From positions 192,829 to 216,828 of the forward strand of contig JAEWCQ010000033.1 of the NCBI GenBank assembly GCA_023390555.1: a stretch of DNA of 24,000 bases. Reading direction: 5' to 3'. This DNA is from Bacillota bacterium. Its GTDB lineage: Bacteria > Bacillota > Clostridia > Lachnospirales > Lachnospiraceae. Each line of letters begins with the position of its first letter. Position 1 is the first letter of the stretch. The notes under the pieces are model-generated. The model was given only the letters and a program-made list of their open reading frames with translations. It had not been told where the DNA came from and ran no database searches. Of the stretch, positions 4,381-12,072 are shown piece after piece. The translations under genes were made by a program, and so were the position numbers.

Positions 4381-4526
4381 GATTTAATTTTAGGGGCAAT
4401 ATTTTTGTGAGATTCAGTCATTCGCATCGTGTCTGTGAAAATAAATATTTGCACGGTTAGGGTGCAACTAATTATTCGAAATGGATAAGGGAGTTCGATA
4501 TAATGTGGTTACATAGAAAGGAGGAT

Positions 4527-4826
4527 ATGCAGCATGAAAAATTAAGAGTTCTTTTGGTATGCGGGTCAGGCGCTTCCAGCGGATTCATGGCAGCAAATAT
4601 CAGAAAAGCGGCAAAAGAAAAAGGGATAGAAATGGACGTACAGGCAAGAAGCGATTCTGAAATTGATAATTACATAGAAGATGTGGATCTGATTATGGTT
4701 GGCCCGCATCTTGAGTATGTAATGGGTAAACTGTCACTCTTTGTTGCGTTCCTAGTACCATTTAATTACTGTGAGGAGAAGAAGCTGCGTAAACAGAGAC
4801 TGATAGCTTTACAGATCGTGTCATGA
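4527..4826 (+). pseudogene. PTS EIIB (lactose/cellobiose family), truncated or fused remnant
   Basis: ATG at 4527 after AAAGGAGG. The first ~66 aa (KLRVLLVCGSGASSGFMAANIRKAAKEKGIEMDV...VDLIMVGPHLEYV) match EIIB-cellobiose with the catalytic Cys. The remaining ~33 aa (GKLSLFVAFLVPFNYCEEKKLRKQRL...) do not resemble the conserved EIIB C-terminus. Confidence 0.55.
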
Positions 4827-5353
4827 GCATAGATGTCATTAAAAATATTTATCCCTGTTACGATCTGGAATTGTTACAAAAGATCATCGAAACGAATTGT
4901 GAGGAATATCATTAATTCATAAATGAATATGCTTTCATGAATCTAATCTTGGATTTGGTTATCGGCATTGACCGAATGAAAAAAGAAAGGACATTCGAAA
5001 TTGAAAAGCATTTCCATGTGACCTATAGCGTAACCAAATTTGAAGAATTAACGAATCTTGATTTGTCAGAGGATGAAATAGGTTACATTGCGCTTCATAT
5101 CGGTGGAAATCTGGAAACACAAAAGTCCAAAAGAAAGGTGATCAGCTGTGTGATCCTGTTTCCACAATATTATGATTTCTCAAATAAAATGATGGATGAA
5201 TTAAAAAATCATTATCAGGAACAATTAGAAATAAAAACAGTCATTACGTCATCAGATGAGATTAAGATGCTGGATAAATCAAATGCAGGTAAGGTTGCAA
5301 AGAGTGCTACGTATATAGATTTTATCGAAGCGGTGATTGGATGTTTCAATTAG
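4826..5353 (+). pseudogene. remnant of a PRD-domain PTS regulator (LicR/MtlR-like PRD plus EIIB-like segment) with an in-frame stop
   Basis: Single frame reads ...SIDVIKNIYPCYDLELLQKIIETNCEEYH*FINEYAFMNLILDLVIGIDRMKK...EDEIGYIALHIGG, which is PRD-like. TAA at 4913-4915 interrupts it. No N-terminal HTH and no EIIA domain is present. Confidence 0.5.
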
Positions 5354-7317: not shown

Positions 7318-7579
7318 TACCACGCCGATTTTGAATGAAGTACACGGGTATTACTCCAGGCACGGAATCTTTTCAAGGATTCGACCACTCAGACTGCAGC
7401 GGGAGTCAGAAAGTCCATATAAAAGTGTAGATTGGAAGACGATAATACAGGGGGAATTCGGAAAATTATCATAAAATTTAATCCGATTGCATAGAAACCT
7501 GCACAGAATCATTTTCAATCGAATAAACTTAACTGAGAATAAAAATGCGTTGCAATTCAAGCAGTTAACAGGAGTTTAT

Positions 7580-9379
7580 ATGGACAATATCAGTTATAGT
7601 AATGACGCAACGGCAAATGCTGGATTACCTTACAATGATATAAACTGGTATAATGTGGAAGGCCAGCCTTTCGGTCCTGCTTCCAAATTCAATGTTATTG
7701 TATTTAACGATGCCAATAACATTGTAGATGTGGGAGGACCAATGGCTGTAGGCGGAAGTTTTTACAGCCCAAGAGGTTTGAGTGTTGCCTTTGGCGGAGA
7801 CAGCGGAAACGAAGAAATTGGTTATTCACCGGACTTAGTACGCTTTTTAATTGGCGGCAATGTATCGATGGGCGGCCCATTGGTTGTTAAGGGGCATGTG
7901 GTTGTTGACGGCGGATTTCGGGCAGCCAAGGGAAGCACCTACTTAATTGGAAAAGATGGTACGACGGATGGGATACCGGAACTGAAGTTTTTGTATCAGG
8001 CCAATGGAGGCAGCCAATATTGGACACCAACGGATAAGGGCGATCACTATGTGGTTCCCAGTTATGATGTACCAAGATATATACCTGCAAGCAGAATCGG
8101 TGCTAACGTACCAAGATTTTTTAACGATGCGAGAGAAGGAATCGGGTACTACAAAAACTGCATCGAAGCGTTTGCACCAAATGGAACAGTCGTGGATAAT
8201 AATTACGAGTGGATTTTAAGGGGCAGTGACCCGGTACAGAATGTATTCCTTATCGATGTAAGACCTAATGGTTTGATCAACAAGGGAATACGTGCCGAAG
8301 TTCCGCAGGGCAGTACCGTTATTGTAAGGCTGAGAACAGGTCCGAATGCCCACTTGCAATACGGTGTCTATGGGGAAAGAAGTAGAGCCAACGAGACATT
8401 GTATGTGTTTGAGGATGCAACGAATATTTATATGGAAAAATCCTCGGATATCTGGGGAAGTATACTGGCACCGCAGGCTATGTTTCATGCACATGCGACA
8501 GGCGGCCATGTAAGCGGCAATGCTGCTTTGGGATCGTTTGCCGTAAATGCTGACAGCGGCTTTGAATTTCATTTTTATCCCTTTGCTGGAAGAGTGATCT
8601 GTCAATCCGTCGCACCAGCCCCGGTAACACCGGCACCGGAAGCACCGCAGGTAACACCAGCACCGGAAGTACCGCAGGTAACACCGGCACCGGAAGTACC
8701 GCAGGTGTCACCTGGAACAGAGGAACAGCCCGCTCAGGTGTGCCCGACATGCCCGACCTGCCCTGCACCGGAACCATGCCCGACGTGTCCGGAACCTACA
8801 CCTTGTCCGACACCAGAACCATGCCCGACGTGTCCGGAACCAGTACCTTGCCCTACGCCGGAACCGTGCCCGGTGTGTCCGACGTGTCCGGAACCTACAC
8901 CTTGTCCTGTACCGGAACCATGCCCGGTGTGTCCGACCTGCCCGACGTGTCCGGAACCTACACCTTGTCCTGTGCCAGAGCCATGCCCGGTGTGTCCGAC
9001 CTGCCCGGAATGCCCGCCGCAGGAAAAGGAATATATCACGATTCCAATACCAGTTCCGGTAGAGTGCCCTGCGCCGCAGCCATGCCCTGTTTGTGAGGAA
9101 TGCATGATTAAACCAGGTATTATTATGGGATGTATCTGGGGATGCAATTGCTGTAACTCCCACGAATGGGATGTAAAATTATACGAGAGGGGCGACGATT
9201 GCGATACGTTACTGTTCTGTGTACAGATTTGCGATTCTGGCTACTTTGAATTTAAAGTTCCTTTTGATGGCTGTTATGTCTTAAAGGTAAGGGCGTCCAG
9301 AAACTGTTGCATCACATTCCGGTGCAGACCGATTGTCACTTTGAAAAATATTGGCGTATCTAATTTTATTATGGAATAA
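7580..9379 (+). CDS. large Cys/Pro-rich protein: choice-of-anchor-A-like N-terminal domain, proline-rich repeats, CPxCP array, Cys-rich C-terminal domain; no signal peptide or anchor
   Basis: ATG at 7580 after AGGAG (7571-7575). Residues ~1-344 carry choice-of-anchor-A-like motifs (FNVIVFNDANN.VDVGGPMAVGG, SDIWGSILAPQAMFHA, GFEFHFYPFAG). These are followed by 3x PAPE(A/V)PQVT and about 22 CP dipeptides in CPTCP/PEPCP repeats. The Cys-rich tail ends with a GYFEFKVPFDGCYVLKV beta-sandwich-like motif. The N-terminus MDNISYSNDATANAG is hydrophilic. Confidence 0.8.
   Translation: MDNISYSNDATANAGLPYNDINWYNVEGQPFGPASKFNVIVFNDANNIVDVGGPMAVGGSFYSPRGLSVAFGGDSGNEEIGYSPDLVRFLIGGNVSMGGPLVVKGHVVVDGGFRAAKGSTYLIGKDGTTDGIPELKFLYQANGGSQYWTPTDKGDHYVVPSYDVPRYIPASRIGANVPRFFNDAREGIGYYKNCIEAFAPNGTVVDNNYEWILRGSDPVQNVFLIDVRPNGLINKGIRAEVPQGSTVIVRLRTGPNAHLQYGVYGERSRANETLYVFEDATNIYMEKSSDIWGSILAPQAMFHAHATGGHVSGNAALGSFAVNADSGFEFHFYPFAGRVICQSVAPAPVTPAPEAPQVTPAPEVPQVTPAPEVPQVSPGTEEQPAQVCPTCPTCPAPEPCPTCPEPTPCPTPEPCPTCPEPVPCPTPEPCPVCPTCPEPTPCPVPEPCPVCPTCPTCPEPTPCPVPEPCPVCPTCPECPPQEKEYITIPIPVPVECPAPQPCPVCEECMIKPGIIMGCIWGCNCCNSHEWDVKLYERGDDCDTLLFCVQICDSGYFEFKVPFDGCYVLKVRASRNCCITFRCRPIVTLKNIGVSNFIME
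8633..8713 (+). repeat. 27-bp in-frame tandem repeat x3 (encodes APEAPQVTP-type units)
   Basis: GCACCGGAAG(C/T)ACCGCAGGT(A/G)(A/T)CACC(A/G/T) at 8633-8659, 8660-8686 and 8687-8713, preceded by a partial copy at 8612-8632. Confidence 0.9.
8741..9019 (+). repeat. in-frame degenerate tandem repeats of 45-63 bp encoding PEPCP(T/V)CP(TCP)nEP(T/V)PCP(T/V)
   Basis: Five successive units share the core CC(A/G)TGCCCG(A/G)(C/T)GTGTCCG...GGAACCTACACCTTGTCC. Unit length differs by 9-bp (CPT) insertions. Confidence 0.9.
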
Positions 9380-9416: not shown

Positions 9417-9457
9417 GCTGCTGCAAGCGGGGTATTCCCTTAATGCAGCAGTTTTTT
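9417..9457 (+). terminator. intrinsic terminator after the Cys/Pro-rich protein gene
   Basis: Stem CTGCTGCA (9418-9425) / TGCAGCAG (9444-9451) followed by TTTTTT (9452-9457). Confidence 0.75.
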
Positions 9458-10507: not shown

Positions 10508-10660
10508 TCAAGGAAGTAACAATTCAGATATTATTCTTTCACTGCAGCATAATTCCTTCAACGTCTGCATAGTGAAAGGCACAACCGTTACCCCCTTGGC
10601 TATCAAATTTTTGCACATGGGAACTACATCGTGGCTGCCCGCTATGAAGCTTTGAATCAT
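10508..10660 (-). CDS. small ORF (50 aa) overlapping the GSDH-like gene stop via ATGA; possibly a gene fragment
   Basis: Hand translation gives MIQSFIAGSHDVVPMCKNLIAKGVTVVPFTMQTLKELCCSERIISELLLP. Its ATG (10660-10658) overlaps the TGA (10659-10657) of the upstream gene. It is below the ORF-track length cutoff and I recognise no family. Confidence 0.3.
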   Translation of the reverse strand: MIQSFIAGSHDVVPMCKNLIAKGVTVVPFTMQTLKELCCSERIISELLLP

Positions 10661-12072
10661 GGAATCATTTCAAAAATAATCCCCTGATTAAAATCCTTCA
10701 CTTTCATGGAGCCATAGACTCCTACATATAGTTTTGTTTGATTCAGATTCGTTCCCAAGCTTACATAATAAGATGATTTCGATCCGAAATCATAGGTTGT
10801 TTCAATGACGCCAAACTCATTCAGTTTACAATTTGTTCTTGCCCTGGTATAAGCCAAAACACCTCTGTGAGGCGGCGAAGCGTTTTCATCCCGTGACAGT
10901 TCCGTAAATAAAATACTTCCCGTCAAATCGGCAATTTCATCGCCCATATATGGCTGGACTCCGGTAAGTGCGGTTGCTCCAAACTTATCGGGGCGGGGAT
11001 CTTCATGAAAATAACTGATCAGAGGCTGAAGATGCTGGGTGGAAGTTTCGACCGCTTCATCATAATAAGCAATTATTTTCTCATTTAAAGTCGGATTTGC
11101 AGAGCAGCTTCTTATGATCGAAGTGGGAAAAGCTCCTTCCCATCCTCGCCAGCCAAGGTTAACAAATTCATCCTGAATGGCTTCAGTTTCCATAAAAGAA
11201 GAATCTGTAAGTTCGGTAACAGGTATCGGTTTATAATCTACGAAGGAAAAAATTGATTCTACCAGATCCTGTCCGACATTGCCTACATATTTGATATACT
11301 GATCAAAAATCTTTTGAAAAGAAATGCCCGGTATATTGCGGACCCCTTTGGCAATTACTGTAAGAGTCTCCTGAATAGGTGCAGGAAGTTCATCAAAACG
11401 TGTGACAACGGGTGGATTATCACGGTATGTATTCTCAGCTACATCAATTTCAATAATTTTGCCGGCAATTTCCATGTAATCCTGGCTTAAATTAAAGGGA
11501 TCATAGCCTGATCCGCCGTCTCCGGTTGTTAGAACGAGTTTTCCAGTTTCGGGTGAGAAATTTAGGCTATTGACACCATTATGATTTAAAAACGGTCTTC
11601 TTATATTAAGCAGCGTCCGTTCTTTTTGCGTTTCGAAATTTGAAGTTACAACCCATTCTTCCACAGTATCAATATGGTCATATTGCGTTTCTCGATTTAG
11701 CCATTTCAGATTTAAGGTTGTTGGGTCACATGGGTTTGGTGTAAAGGATTTTGGAAGAGCGCCCAGACCTTGTGTTCCGGCAACTGAATAATGAAGATAA
11801 AACAGACCATTATCAGAAAACTCCGGATGAAACGCCAGACCCAGTAATCCACGTTCATCGTATCCGCCAGATGAATTACCTAATTCCAGGACTTGAGGCC
11901 GGATATCTAAAAAGGTCTCGATCGAGTCGTCTTCCAGGTAAAAAATCTCTCCAATCTGGGTTGCAATAAATAATCGTTCGGTTGTTTCGCCCGGAAGTAT
12001 AGTTGTTTTTAAAACTGTGGGTAAATTTATATTGTCTACTAAGGGCAGTAAATTAGCTTTCACGTTTTCCAA
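10657..12072 (-). CDS. glucose/sorbosone dehydrogenase (GSDH)-like beta-propeller protein, no signal peptide
   Basis: 471 aa. Motifs ERGLLGLAFHPEFSDNGLFYLHY, HNGVNSLNFSPETGKLVLTTGDGGSGYDP, VRNIPGISF and LGWRGWEG match the soluble PQQ-type aldose dehydrogenase fold family. TTG start with GAGGA RBS. The N-terminus is hydrophilic. Confidence 0.75.
   Translation of the reverse strand: MENVKANLLPLVDNINLPTVLKTTILPGETTERLFIATQIGEIFYLEDDSIETFLDIRPQVLELGNSSGGYDERGLLGLAFHPEFSDNGLFYLHYSVAGTQGLGALPKSFTPNPCDPTTLNLKWLNRETQYDHIDTVEEWVVTSNFETQKERTLLNIRRPFLNHNGVNSLNFSPETGKLVLTTGDGGSGYDPFNLSQDYMEIAGKIIEIDVAENTYRDNPPVVTRFDELPAPIQETLTVIAKGVRNIPGISFQKIFDQYIKYVGNVGQDLVESIFSFVDYKPIPVTELTDSSFMETEAIQDEFVNLGWRGWEGAFPTSIIRSCSANPTLNEKIIAYYDEAVETSTQHLQPLISYFHEDPRPDKFGATALTGVQPYMGDEIADLTGSILFTELSRDENASPPHRGVLAYTRARTNCKLNEFGVIETTYDFGSKSSYYVSLGTNLNQTKLYVGVYGSMKVKDFNQGIIFEMIP

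Follow-up and report, generated by a model that had tools for sequence, protein, structure and literature searches.

A Signal-less Choice-of-Anchor-A Protein with a Pro/Cys-rich Linker and Mother-cell-type Promoters: a Candidate Spore Outer-layer Protein of Lachnospiraceae

Where does a choice-of-anchor-A protein act when it carries no signal for export? This question is raised by a gene at positions 7580–9379 on the + strand of a 24,000-nucleotide (nt) stretch of Lachnospiraceae DNA (assembly GCA_023390555.1, contig JAEWCQ010000033.1, positions 192,829–216,828), hereafter called the window. The gene encodes a 599-residue protein composed of three parts: a choice-of-anchor-A β-helix domain, a Pro/Cys-rich linker, and a Cys-rich C-terminal domain. 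An initial annotation had proposed a disulfide-cross-linked structural protein, possibly of the spore surface. The analysis described here lends the spore-surface idea support of an in silico kind, namely sporulation-type promoters and endospore-forming Lachnospiraceae hosts. On balance, we lean slightly towards the view that the protein is a late product of the mother cell that becomes incorporated into the spore outer layer. Manufacture in the mother cell and assembly on the forespore surface are suggested because the protein is signal-less and rich in Cys and Pro, the promoters are of the mother-cell type, and the hosts are endospore formers.

Reading frame and export signals

7570–7574, +, ribosome-binding site AGGAG, kept 5–6 nt before the ATG in nearly all related loci
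7580–9379, +, open reading frame (ORF) of 599 codons plus the stop codon, its start fixed by 120 homologues

Two starts are available in the frame ending at 9379, TTG at 7487 (630 residues) and ATG at 7580 (599 residues). The homologues inspected (120 of 120) all begin at the equivalent Met in the context M-D-N...G(I/L)PYDDINW. ATG 7580 is taken as the real start because of these homologues and the position of AGGAG upstream, and the 630-residue reading from TTG 7487 was dropped on the same grounds. The in-frame upstream extension appears instead to be a conserved promoter region.

The protein contains 39 Cys (6.5%) and 84 Pro (14%) residues. A Kyte–Doolittle scan detected no hydrophobic segment suitable for a signal peptide or a membrane helix in the window protein; the maximum 15-residue mean within the first 60 residues is 0.81, the maximum 19-residue mean over the whole protein is 1.15, and the upstream extension was also covered. 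The LPXTG motif is absent from the window protein, and no signal peptide, transmembrane segment, or anchor is found in any of the 120 homologues inspected. The context of a secreted and anchored protein (a signal peptide plus an LPXTG, PEP-CTERM, or T9SS signal) is thus missing from the window protein and the homologues alike, as the initial annotation had noted for the window protein. The domain belongs to the choice-of-anchor-A group, but the protein does not look like a typical "choice-of-anchor" surface protein.

Promoters and leader in the upstream region

7469–7497, +, sigma-E-type promoter with −35 TCATAAA (7469–7475), a 14-nt spacer, and −10 CATAGAAA (7490–7497)
7501–7529, +, family-wide sigma-K-type promoter with −35 GCAC (7501–7504) and −10 GAATAAACT (7521–7529)
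7534–7541, +, conserved block TGAGAATA, at +13 to +20 counted from where the −10 box begins, 73–94% conserved and not part of the search pattern
7550–7564, +, small hairpin UUGC-AAUUCAA-GCAG in the 5′ untranslated region (5′-UTR), read by eye

The initial annotation had pointed to the upstream region as the place to look for sigma-E or sigma-K promoters, and a site of each type was found there. We aligned the upstream regions of 41 loci and counted promoter patterns over 87 loci (619 kb, either strand). The alignment contains an upstream block conserved far beyond the flanking sequence. The sigma-K-type site in the window has the arrangement AC (7503–7504)-N17-AATAAACT (7522–7529), which is the modal geometry for sigma-K. 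Of the 87 loci, 74 carry the pattern GCAC-N15/16-GAATA[AC]A, always about 50 nt 5′ of the start of this gene, and the pattern has no further match in the 619 kb on either strand. Its chance expectation in the window is 0.08. The loci without GCAC have TCAC, ACAC, or AACA, which retain AC, and GCAT occurs in only two loci. In L078 the −10 box is GCATAAATT, in which AATA is replaced by the canonical CATA. The natural variants appear to keep exactly what sigma-K needs, AC at −35 and AATA or CATA at −10.

Both promoter classes were assigned by comparison with the experimentally mapped sporulation promoters of Clostridioides difficile, a member of a different family (Saujet et al. 2013, PMC3789822, Tables S6 and S7). 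The C. difficile sigma-K promoters follow AC-N16-18-[C/A]ATAnnnT with the transcription start 4–7 nt further on; about one-third of them (CD1133, cotE, cotA, ytlC, CD1891, and CD3613) have AATA instead of CATA, and that of CD1133 reads CAC-N17-AATATACTA (PMC3789822). The −10 sequence GAATAAACT is also found verbatim in mapped sigma-E promoters, those of CD3464 (TGAATAAACTGAAGTA), CD1063 (TGAATAAACTTTATTG), and cotB (CGAATAAAGT) (PMC3789822). Both sites in the window have the features of a mother-cell promoter: AC or ATA at −35, [C/A]ATAnnnT at −10, and a spacing of 16–18 or 13–15 nt. A position weight matrix (PWM) derived from 21 sigma-K promoters of C. difficile was compared with 1.23 million background positions. 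The window site scored within the top 0.11% of these and the median site of the family within the top 0.25%, ranks that by themselves are not significant for a 260-nt region. The case for sigma-K is therefore based on the conservation and the pattern of permitted variation, and not on the PWM score.

The sigma-E-type site, canonical in form, lies exactly 32 nt 5′ of GCAC in 19 loci, including the window and both the Lacrimispora and Anaerocolumna lineages. The expression [GT][AC]ATA[AT][AT]-N13-15-CATA has 74 matches in 1.24 Mb, and 19 of them fall at the fixed offset against 0.27 expected. The boxes are kept between Lacrimispora-type and Anaerocolumna-type loci, whereas the spacers have diverged.

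Conservation continues downstream of the −10 box. Positions that are not in the search pattern are 73–100% conserved (T at +8, AA at +10/11, T at +13, and AGAA at +15–18), and the TGAGAATA block repeats GAATAAA 16 nt downstream of the first copy. Since the −10-to-start distance in C. difficile is 4–7 nt, transcription is predicted to start at about 7535–7537, which would place this block around the start site. The hairpin follows about 15 nt after the predicted start. It is UUGC-loop-GCAG in Lacrimispora-type loci and GGAUU-loop-AAUCC in Anaerocolumna-type loci and distant members, and it occupies the same position in L001, L067, L071, L019, L042, and others. That the pairing is kept despite the different sequences suggests an mRNA-stabilizing or translational element. 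An Rfam search of the leader gave no match.

A simple scan of the intergenic region found no sigma-70-type promoter on its + strand. Other sigma classes were judged from known consensus sequences and the C. difficile tables. The forespore classes sigma-F/G (GnATA, 13–15 nt, GnnAAnAATA) were rejected, since the spacing from GAATA to GAGAATAAA is 9 nt and the −35 position lacks ATA. Sigma-H, which has GAAT at −10, was rejected because there is no AGGA at −35 at the right spacing, and none of sigma-54, the extracytoplasmic-function type, sigma-D, and the TcdR type fits. Among the matches to mother-cell-type promoters in 620 kb of fetched loci, there are no recognizable sporulation genes. A gene of Anaerocolumna xylanovorans encoding a LysM + GH18 (YaaH/SleL-like) protein (L087, 2166–3464, − strand, upstream region to about 3560) is preceded by TAATACT-N15-CATATATT, a canonical promoter of the sigma-E type. 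This promoter, picked out by eye, looks like a native example in which a mother-cell promoter of the clade resembles those of C. difficile.

Family members and hosts

A search of 5.8 billion proteins yielded more than 230 relatives with the same domain order, so the architecture is not a chance feature. Nearly all of the 120 relatives listed are 511–675 residues long, and PF20597 is their sole Pfam domain. By scanning one genome per GTDB species, we found 175 loci. The named hosts are all Lachnospiraceae: Lacrimispora (many species), Anaerocolumna, Anaerosporobacter, Kineothrix, Herbinix, Lachnotalea, Mobilisporobacter, Anaeromicropila, Velocimicrobium, [Clostridium] fimetarium, and [C.] aerotolerans. 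The family is restricted to endospore-forming genera, and Lacrimispora species are described as endospore-forming. Some loci (L009, L014, L016, and L050, as well as that of protein P0162) come from metagenome-assembled genomes labeled Paenibacillaceae, Acetivibrio, or Anaerolineaceae; they are near-identical to Lacrimispora loci, promoter included, and are probably mis-binned or mislabeled contigs.

The family members bear only the database names "choice-of-anchor A family protein" and "collagen-binding domain-containing protein". Scans of the whole protein with Pfam (E up to 1) and NCBIfam matched the choice-of-anchor-A domain only, and sequence and profile searches of the PDB with the whole protein gave only low-complexity matches to Pro-Thr (PT) linkers. 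No characterized family with the same domain order was found in Pfam, NCBIfam, PHROGs, the PDB, or a full-text literature search, which agrees with the earlier remark that the architecture was not recognizable as a characterized one.

N-terminal β-helix domain

7580–7666, +, residues 1–29, family-specific N-terminal segment with invariant G15, P17, Y18, W23, and G28 (GxPYxxxxW) in a 30-sequence alignment
7667–8590, +, residues 30–337, choice-of-anchor A/pAdhesive_15 β-helix domain, from hidden Markov model matches and the structural model

The presence of a choice-of-anchor-A-like β-helix, first proposed from motifs, is firmly supported by profile matches. PF20597 (pAdhesive_15) matches residues 30–331 (E 6.4e-33, 115.2 bits against a cutoff of 23.8), and TIGR04215 (choice_anch_A) matches residues 36–337 (E 2.2e-28, 99.7 bits against a cutoff of 29). 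An AlphaFold2 (AF2) model of the full-length protein was built on the 30-sequence family alignment. In the model, residues ~12–342 form a confident β-helix of stacked short strands, for which the predicted local distance difference test score (pLDDT) is mostly 85–96, and residues 177–197 form a long flanking helix. Residues 1–29 are located outside the Pfam match; their pLDDT is 30 for residues 1–10 and 73 for residues 11–20. The top fold matches in the PDB are the DUF3494 ice-binding proteins 6bg8, 6eio, and 4nu2. These matches are weak (E 1.6e-3 to 0.4, TM-score 0.43–0.48 on the target), and the predicted fold is nevertheless the right-handed β-helix with a long flanking helix of ice-binding proteins. 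The resemblance to DUF3494 has already been published for the choice-of-anchor-A domain family.

The N-terminal domain is the most conserved part of the protein, with 57–84% identity across genera. The invariant residues include His106, Asp163, Arg166, Arg172, His258, Glu278-Asp279, Glu286, His305, Glu329, and His331, and they are situated in the motifs FEDAxNIxME, HAHxTGGH, and SGFEFH.

Pro/Cys-rich linker

8630–8710, +, residues 351–377, three PAPE(A/V)PQV(T/S) units, a DNA repeat of period 27 (3.1 copies, 94% match)
8741–9016, +, residues 388–479, CP array of 22 CP dipeptides arranged as CPxCP and PEPCP, predicted to be disordered
9017–9100, +, residues 480–507, second linker PQEKEYITIPIPVPVECPAPQPCPVCEE

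Residues 343–507 are disordered in the AF2 model (pLDDT 40–55) and contain 61 Pro and 25 Cys among 165 residues. The three units (PAPEAPQVT, PAPEVPQVT, and PAPEVPQVS) and the approximately 22 CP dipeptides described initially are both present; there are 22 dipeptides in the main array (388–479) and 24 within residues 388–503. They comprise four CPTCP, three CPVCP, and one CPECP motifs, and CxxC occurs 13 times. The DNA of the linker consists of degenerate tandem repeats with periods of 27, 45, 54, and 63. Long ORFs overlapping the array at 8708–9163 (−), 8734–9147 (−), and 8740–9096 (+) encode Arg/Gly/His-rich repeats. These antisense and out-of-frame ORFs are by-products of GC-rich repetitive codons and not genes.

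The variability of this part should be noted. One more TCP unit follows residue 476 (the 9008–9016 region of the window) in P0001, a metagenomic copy with 99% identity, indicating that the array is length-polymorphic between close strains. Across orthologues, the number of CP dipeptides ranges from 5 to 40 and that of Cys from 19 to 57 per protein, while a distant member, P0136, joins the same two end domains by a Cys-free Pro/Glu linker. Only the last few CP motifs before the C-terminal domain are well conserved within the array. The CPxCP ladder therefore does not stand as an essential feature, and both the hinge-ladder and the metal/redox-array ideas of the initial annotation are weakened as the core function.

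Cys-rich C-terminal domain

9101–9376, +, residues 508–599, family-specific Cys-rich β-sandwich (AF2 pLDDT 93, seven strands)

Modeled alone by AF2, the C-terminal domain is a seven-strand β-sandwich with a pLDDT of 93. Its 92 residues hold 12 Cys, including the cluster C518-x3-C522-x-C524-C525, in agreement with the CC and CxxxC clusters recognized initially, together with a GYFEFKVPFDGCYVLKV motif. The residues Ile515, Gly517, Cys522, Cys524, His528, Trp530, Phe556, Tyr566, Cys582, Pro584, Asn590, Gly592, and Val593 are invariant, and Cys518 (91% of members) and Cys547 are nearly so.

The initial annotation had compared this domain with Cna-B and carboxypeptidase-regulatory β-sandwiches. A β-sandwich is predicted, but membership of either family finds no support, since residues 486–599 have no Pfam match at E up to 0.01, PF05738 and PF13620 included, and Foldseek gave no significant match (best E 0.15). 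The motif dG-F-x-F-x-VP-x-G-x-Y-x-L is shared with CarboxypepD_reg repeats (hhalign probability 44% over 28 columns). A PDB sequence search detected no relatives apart from one weak match to a "phage protein" (E 1.1). An exhaustive phmmer search of 1.84 billion representatives returned 18 matches, namely family members, fragments, and a few motif-level matches, so that no other architecture with the domain was found, and a profile search added only short fragments from split gene calls. Judging from these searches, the domain is confined to this family. Many "hypothetical proteins" of 84–150 residues consist of the C-terminal domain only (P0150–P0169 and P0121–P0133; for example, P0152, on the contig of L045). 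They look like gene calls or assemblies broken in the repeat array, not a separate family.

Locus and neighboring genes

9418–9457, +, intrinsic terminator, an inverted repeat with the stem CTGCTGCA/TGCAGCAG followed by TTTTTT

In the window, the gene is flanked by a ferredoxin-nitroreductase gene on one side and a convergent MarR gene on the other, and the wider neighborhood has unrelated accessory functions. It is chromosomal, and its location differs from one examined genome to the next, across genera; no gene neighborhood is shared among the seven other genomes inspected. The gene is a stand-alone (monocistronic) transcription unit, because it has its own promoter, ribosome-binding site, and terminator and no conserved neighbors. 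Spore coat genes are usually stand-alone transcription units.

In Anaeromicropila herbilytica (L002, 10307–17905), the gene adjoins a type VII secretion-like cluster with five WXG100 genes, YukD, and FHA-VWA; such a cluster is found in no other genome examined. Elsewhere in the window, a lone ORF for a phosphotransferase system (PTS) IIB protein (107 residues) and a 138-residue ORF with a partial PRD domain lie at 4503–5353 and look like remnants of a sugar-PTS/antiterminator locus. A 471-residue glucose/sorbosone-dehydrogenase-like ORF (PF07995) at 10657–12072 (−) starts with TTG and lacks an obvious signal peptide; this is unusual, as members of this β-propeller family are normally periplasmic or secreted.

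Discussion

The features described above can be combined into the following scheme, for which we infer the sigma factor, localization, orientation, disulfide cross-linking, and ligand. The gene would be a sporulation gene that forms its own transcription unit and is expressed in the mother cell, driven family-wide by the sigma-K-type promoter, with the sigma-E-type promoter added in part of the family. A signal peptide would not be needed, since the forespore lies within the mother-cell cytoplasm, where the protein would be synthesized. It would be deposited in the outermost spore layer, either the coat or an exosporium-like layer, with one globular end fixed there. We favor the Cys-rich C-terminal β-sandwich together with the conserved last CP motifs as this end. 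The stalk of ~165 Pro/Cys-rich residues would be extended, reaching up to ~50 nm if fully in the polyproline-II conformation (~0.31 nm per residue), and would hold out the β-helix as an adhesive or glycan-binding head. After lysis of the reducing mother cell, the many Cys residues could form inter-chain disulfides and harden the layer.

The choice-of-anchor A proteins (TIGR04215 and PF20597), whose founding member is BA_0871 of Bacillus anthracis and which include the Jonah lectins and the diatom Trailins, share the N-terminal domain, an ice-binding-like β-helix with a flanking helix. They differ in possessing signal peptides and, in the bacterial proteins, LPXTG, PEP-CTERM, or T9SS anchors, neither of which is present here. 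The family described here in turn adds the 29-residue N-terminal segment, the Cys/Pro stalk, and the private C-terminal domain. In the outer cyst wall of Acanthamoeba, the Jonah lectin binds cellulose (and some chitin) through its choice-of-anchor-A domain, and the domain of the Trailins has a role in diatom adhesive trails; these are the only activities reported for such domains. By analogy with them, an adhesive or glycan-binding head on spores of plant-fiber-degrading and gut bacteria is plausible. Like the protein in the scheme proposed here, the cellulose-binding Jonah lectin belongs to the wall of a dormant stage.

CdeC and CdeM of C. difficile, CotY and CotZ of B. subtilis, and ExsY of the B. 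cereus group are likewise signal-less, Cys-rich proteins made in the mother cell, and they are thought to self-assemble through disulfides; CdeC, CdeM, CotY, and ExsY form layers stabilized in this way. The C. difficile genes cotA, cotE, and sleC have mapped sigma-K promoters (PMC3789822), and the promoter here appears, judged by sequence, to be of the same type. However, Pfam and NCBIfam scans gave no sequence similarity to these Cys-rich proteins, which are compact lattice formers and not head-stalk-tail proteins. CdeC and CdeM are absent from Lachnospiraceae (PMC6101409). The BclA-type glycoproteins of the spore nap follow the same logic in that they are signal-less, made in the mother cell, and composed of two end domains joined by a long, length-polymorphic, Pro-rich repetitive stalk. 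The stalk here is made of CPxCP/PEPCP and not of collagen GXX triplets, and the N-terminal targeting motif of BclA is absent. The C-terminal domain is not TNF/C1q-like, as matches to the TNF-family fold have a TM-score of 0.28, an rmsd near 13 Å, and E above 0.1.

Parallels to the separate parts are also found. In the IgG3 hinge, CPxCP motifs (CPRCP repeats) form parallel inter-chain disulfides. Repeated CPxCP in a polyproline context is common to both, but the array here is bacterial, much longer (22 CP), and not conserved in number, and pairing of its Cys is putative. The family profile aligns through its linker to the (PT)n linker of 8zvk_A, which represents the PT linkers of glycoside hydrolases, with the same periodic P-x spacing of an extended spacer between domains; Cys takes the place of Thr here, so that a spacer open to O-glycosylation becomes one that could be cross-linked. 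The C-terminal domain, a predicted seven-strand β-sandwich of ~90 residues, recalls the CarboxypepD_reg and Cna-B domains and shares the motif mentioned above with CarboxypepD_reg repeats, but its 12 Cys and invariant C-x-C-x3-H cluster are missing from those domains.

Several observations weigh against the assembly of the protein into the spore outer layer. The conservation of the N-terminal domain, with many invariant His, Asp, and Glu, is unusually high for an exposed adhesin, and this domain could be an enzyme or an internal assembly factor. The CP content of the proposed stalk is not conserved. The sigma-K assignment is drawn from resemblance to promoters of another family, the Peptostreptococcaceae, for which the PWM score is suggestive, not decisive. 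The invariant G preceding AATAAAC (GAATAAAC) and the TGAGAATA block are not explained by the sigma-K consensus; they may mark a co-regulator, another regulator, or a constraint on the mRNA 5′ end or initial transcript. No other gene in the fetched loci (619 kb) has the same motif, so no regulon is defined. Among the host genera, sporulation is confirmed in the literature for Lacrimispora only. The literature search turned up neither transcriptomes nor mutant studies of the host organisms, and no paper on Lacrimispora spore coats; the transcription-start data of C. phytofermentans cover vegetative growth only.

The strongest rival, which we consider rather unlikely, is that the protein is a mother-cell sporulation protein but not a surface fiber. 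The β-helix would then be a lectin or an enzyme acting on spore glycan or in cortex or coat assembly, with the Cys-rich tail as only a tether. The promoters and the lack of a signal fit this explanation equally well, and the invariant His, Asp, and Glu of the most conserved domain are in its favor. No catalytic family with this fold is known, however, and Pfam, NCBIfam, and the PDB give adhesin or ice-binding relatives only. A stalk of ~165 residues also suits display better than an enzyme inside the coat. It is unlikely that the protein instead leaves vegetative cells by a non-classical route and acts as an adhesin, on the cell surface or outside the cell, with the upstream motif belonging to some other regulator. 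Every characterized choice-of-anchor-A protein is extracellular, the Anaeromicropila copy adjoins the type VII (WXG100/YukD) cluster, and the promoter class is assigned by comparison only. Against these points, none of the 120 homologues has a signal peptide or an anchor over a family-level divergence, the type VII neighborhood is limited to one genome, the protein is neither WXG- nor LXG-like, and the promoter variants track the sigma-K consensus.

A cytoplasmic metal or redox buffer, in which a metallothionein-like CxxC array binds Zn, Cu, or Cd or scavenges oxidants, seems very improbable. The 39 Cys in the protein and the 13 CxxC in the linker are compatible with such a role, and the invariant C-x-C-x3-H cluster (Cys522, Cys524, and His528), with Cys518 in 91% of members, could bind a metal. 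The conserved number and spacing of Cys seen in metallothioneins are nevertheless missing from the linker, where 5–40 CP and 19–57 Cys per protein are found among orthologues and the Cys-free linker of P0136 joins the same end domains. Pro-flanked Cys in an extended stalk are, from general knowledge of metallothionein folds, ill-suited to wrap metal clusters, no metal-homeostasis genes are linked, and a buffer would have no use for an adhesin-type domain. A prophage or phage tail-fiber-like receptor-binding protein, with a β-helix and an Ig-like tip, is excluded for practical purposes. β-Helix plus β-sandwich architectures do occur in tail spikes, and the C-terminal domain has the weak match to a phage protein mentioned above, but there is no PHROG match, no BFVD fold match below E 0.01, and no phage gene in the window or seven other loci, and the gene is chromosomal at a different locus in each genome examined.

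Returning to the spore outer layer as the favored destination, we may tentatively go one step further, to a possibility that we hold with clearly less confidence. The protein might be a hitherto unrecognized type of spore "nap" fiber, specific to Lachnospiraceae of plant fiber and the gut. The Cys-rich foot would be locked in the outer layer, and the Cys/Pro stalk would replace the collagen of BclA, with neighboring fibers zipped by disulfides only on exposure to oxygen. By binding cellulose or glycans of the host, the choice-of-anchor-A head would make spores adhere to plant particles or mucus. Such a fiber would be a counterpart of the CdeC/BclA systems lacking in Lachnospiraceae.

Lachnospiraceae are major anaerobes of the gut and of plant biomass that spread between hosts as spores, and their spore surface is almost unknown. 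With its defined promoter, the gene offers a concrete and readily testable candidate for an adhesin or structural protein of the spore surface. If the proposal is true, the protein would represent a new building plan among spore outer-layer proteins, consisting of an adhesin head, a disulfide-capable polyproline stalk, and a private Cys-rich foot. It would give the choice-of-anchor-A domain a second role in the wall of a dormant stage, after the Acanthamoeba cyst lectin. The upstream block would provide a sigma-K-type promoter logo for Lachnospiraceae, and the gene would serve as a metagenome marker for the spore-forming members of the clade.

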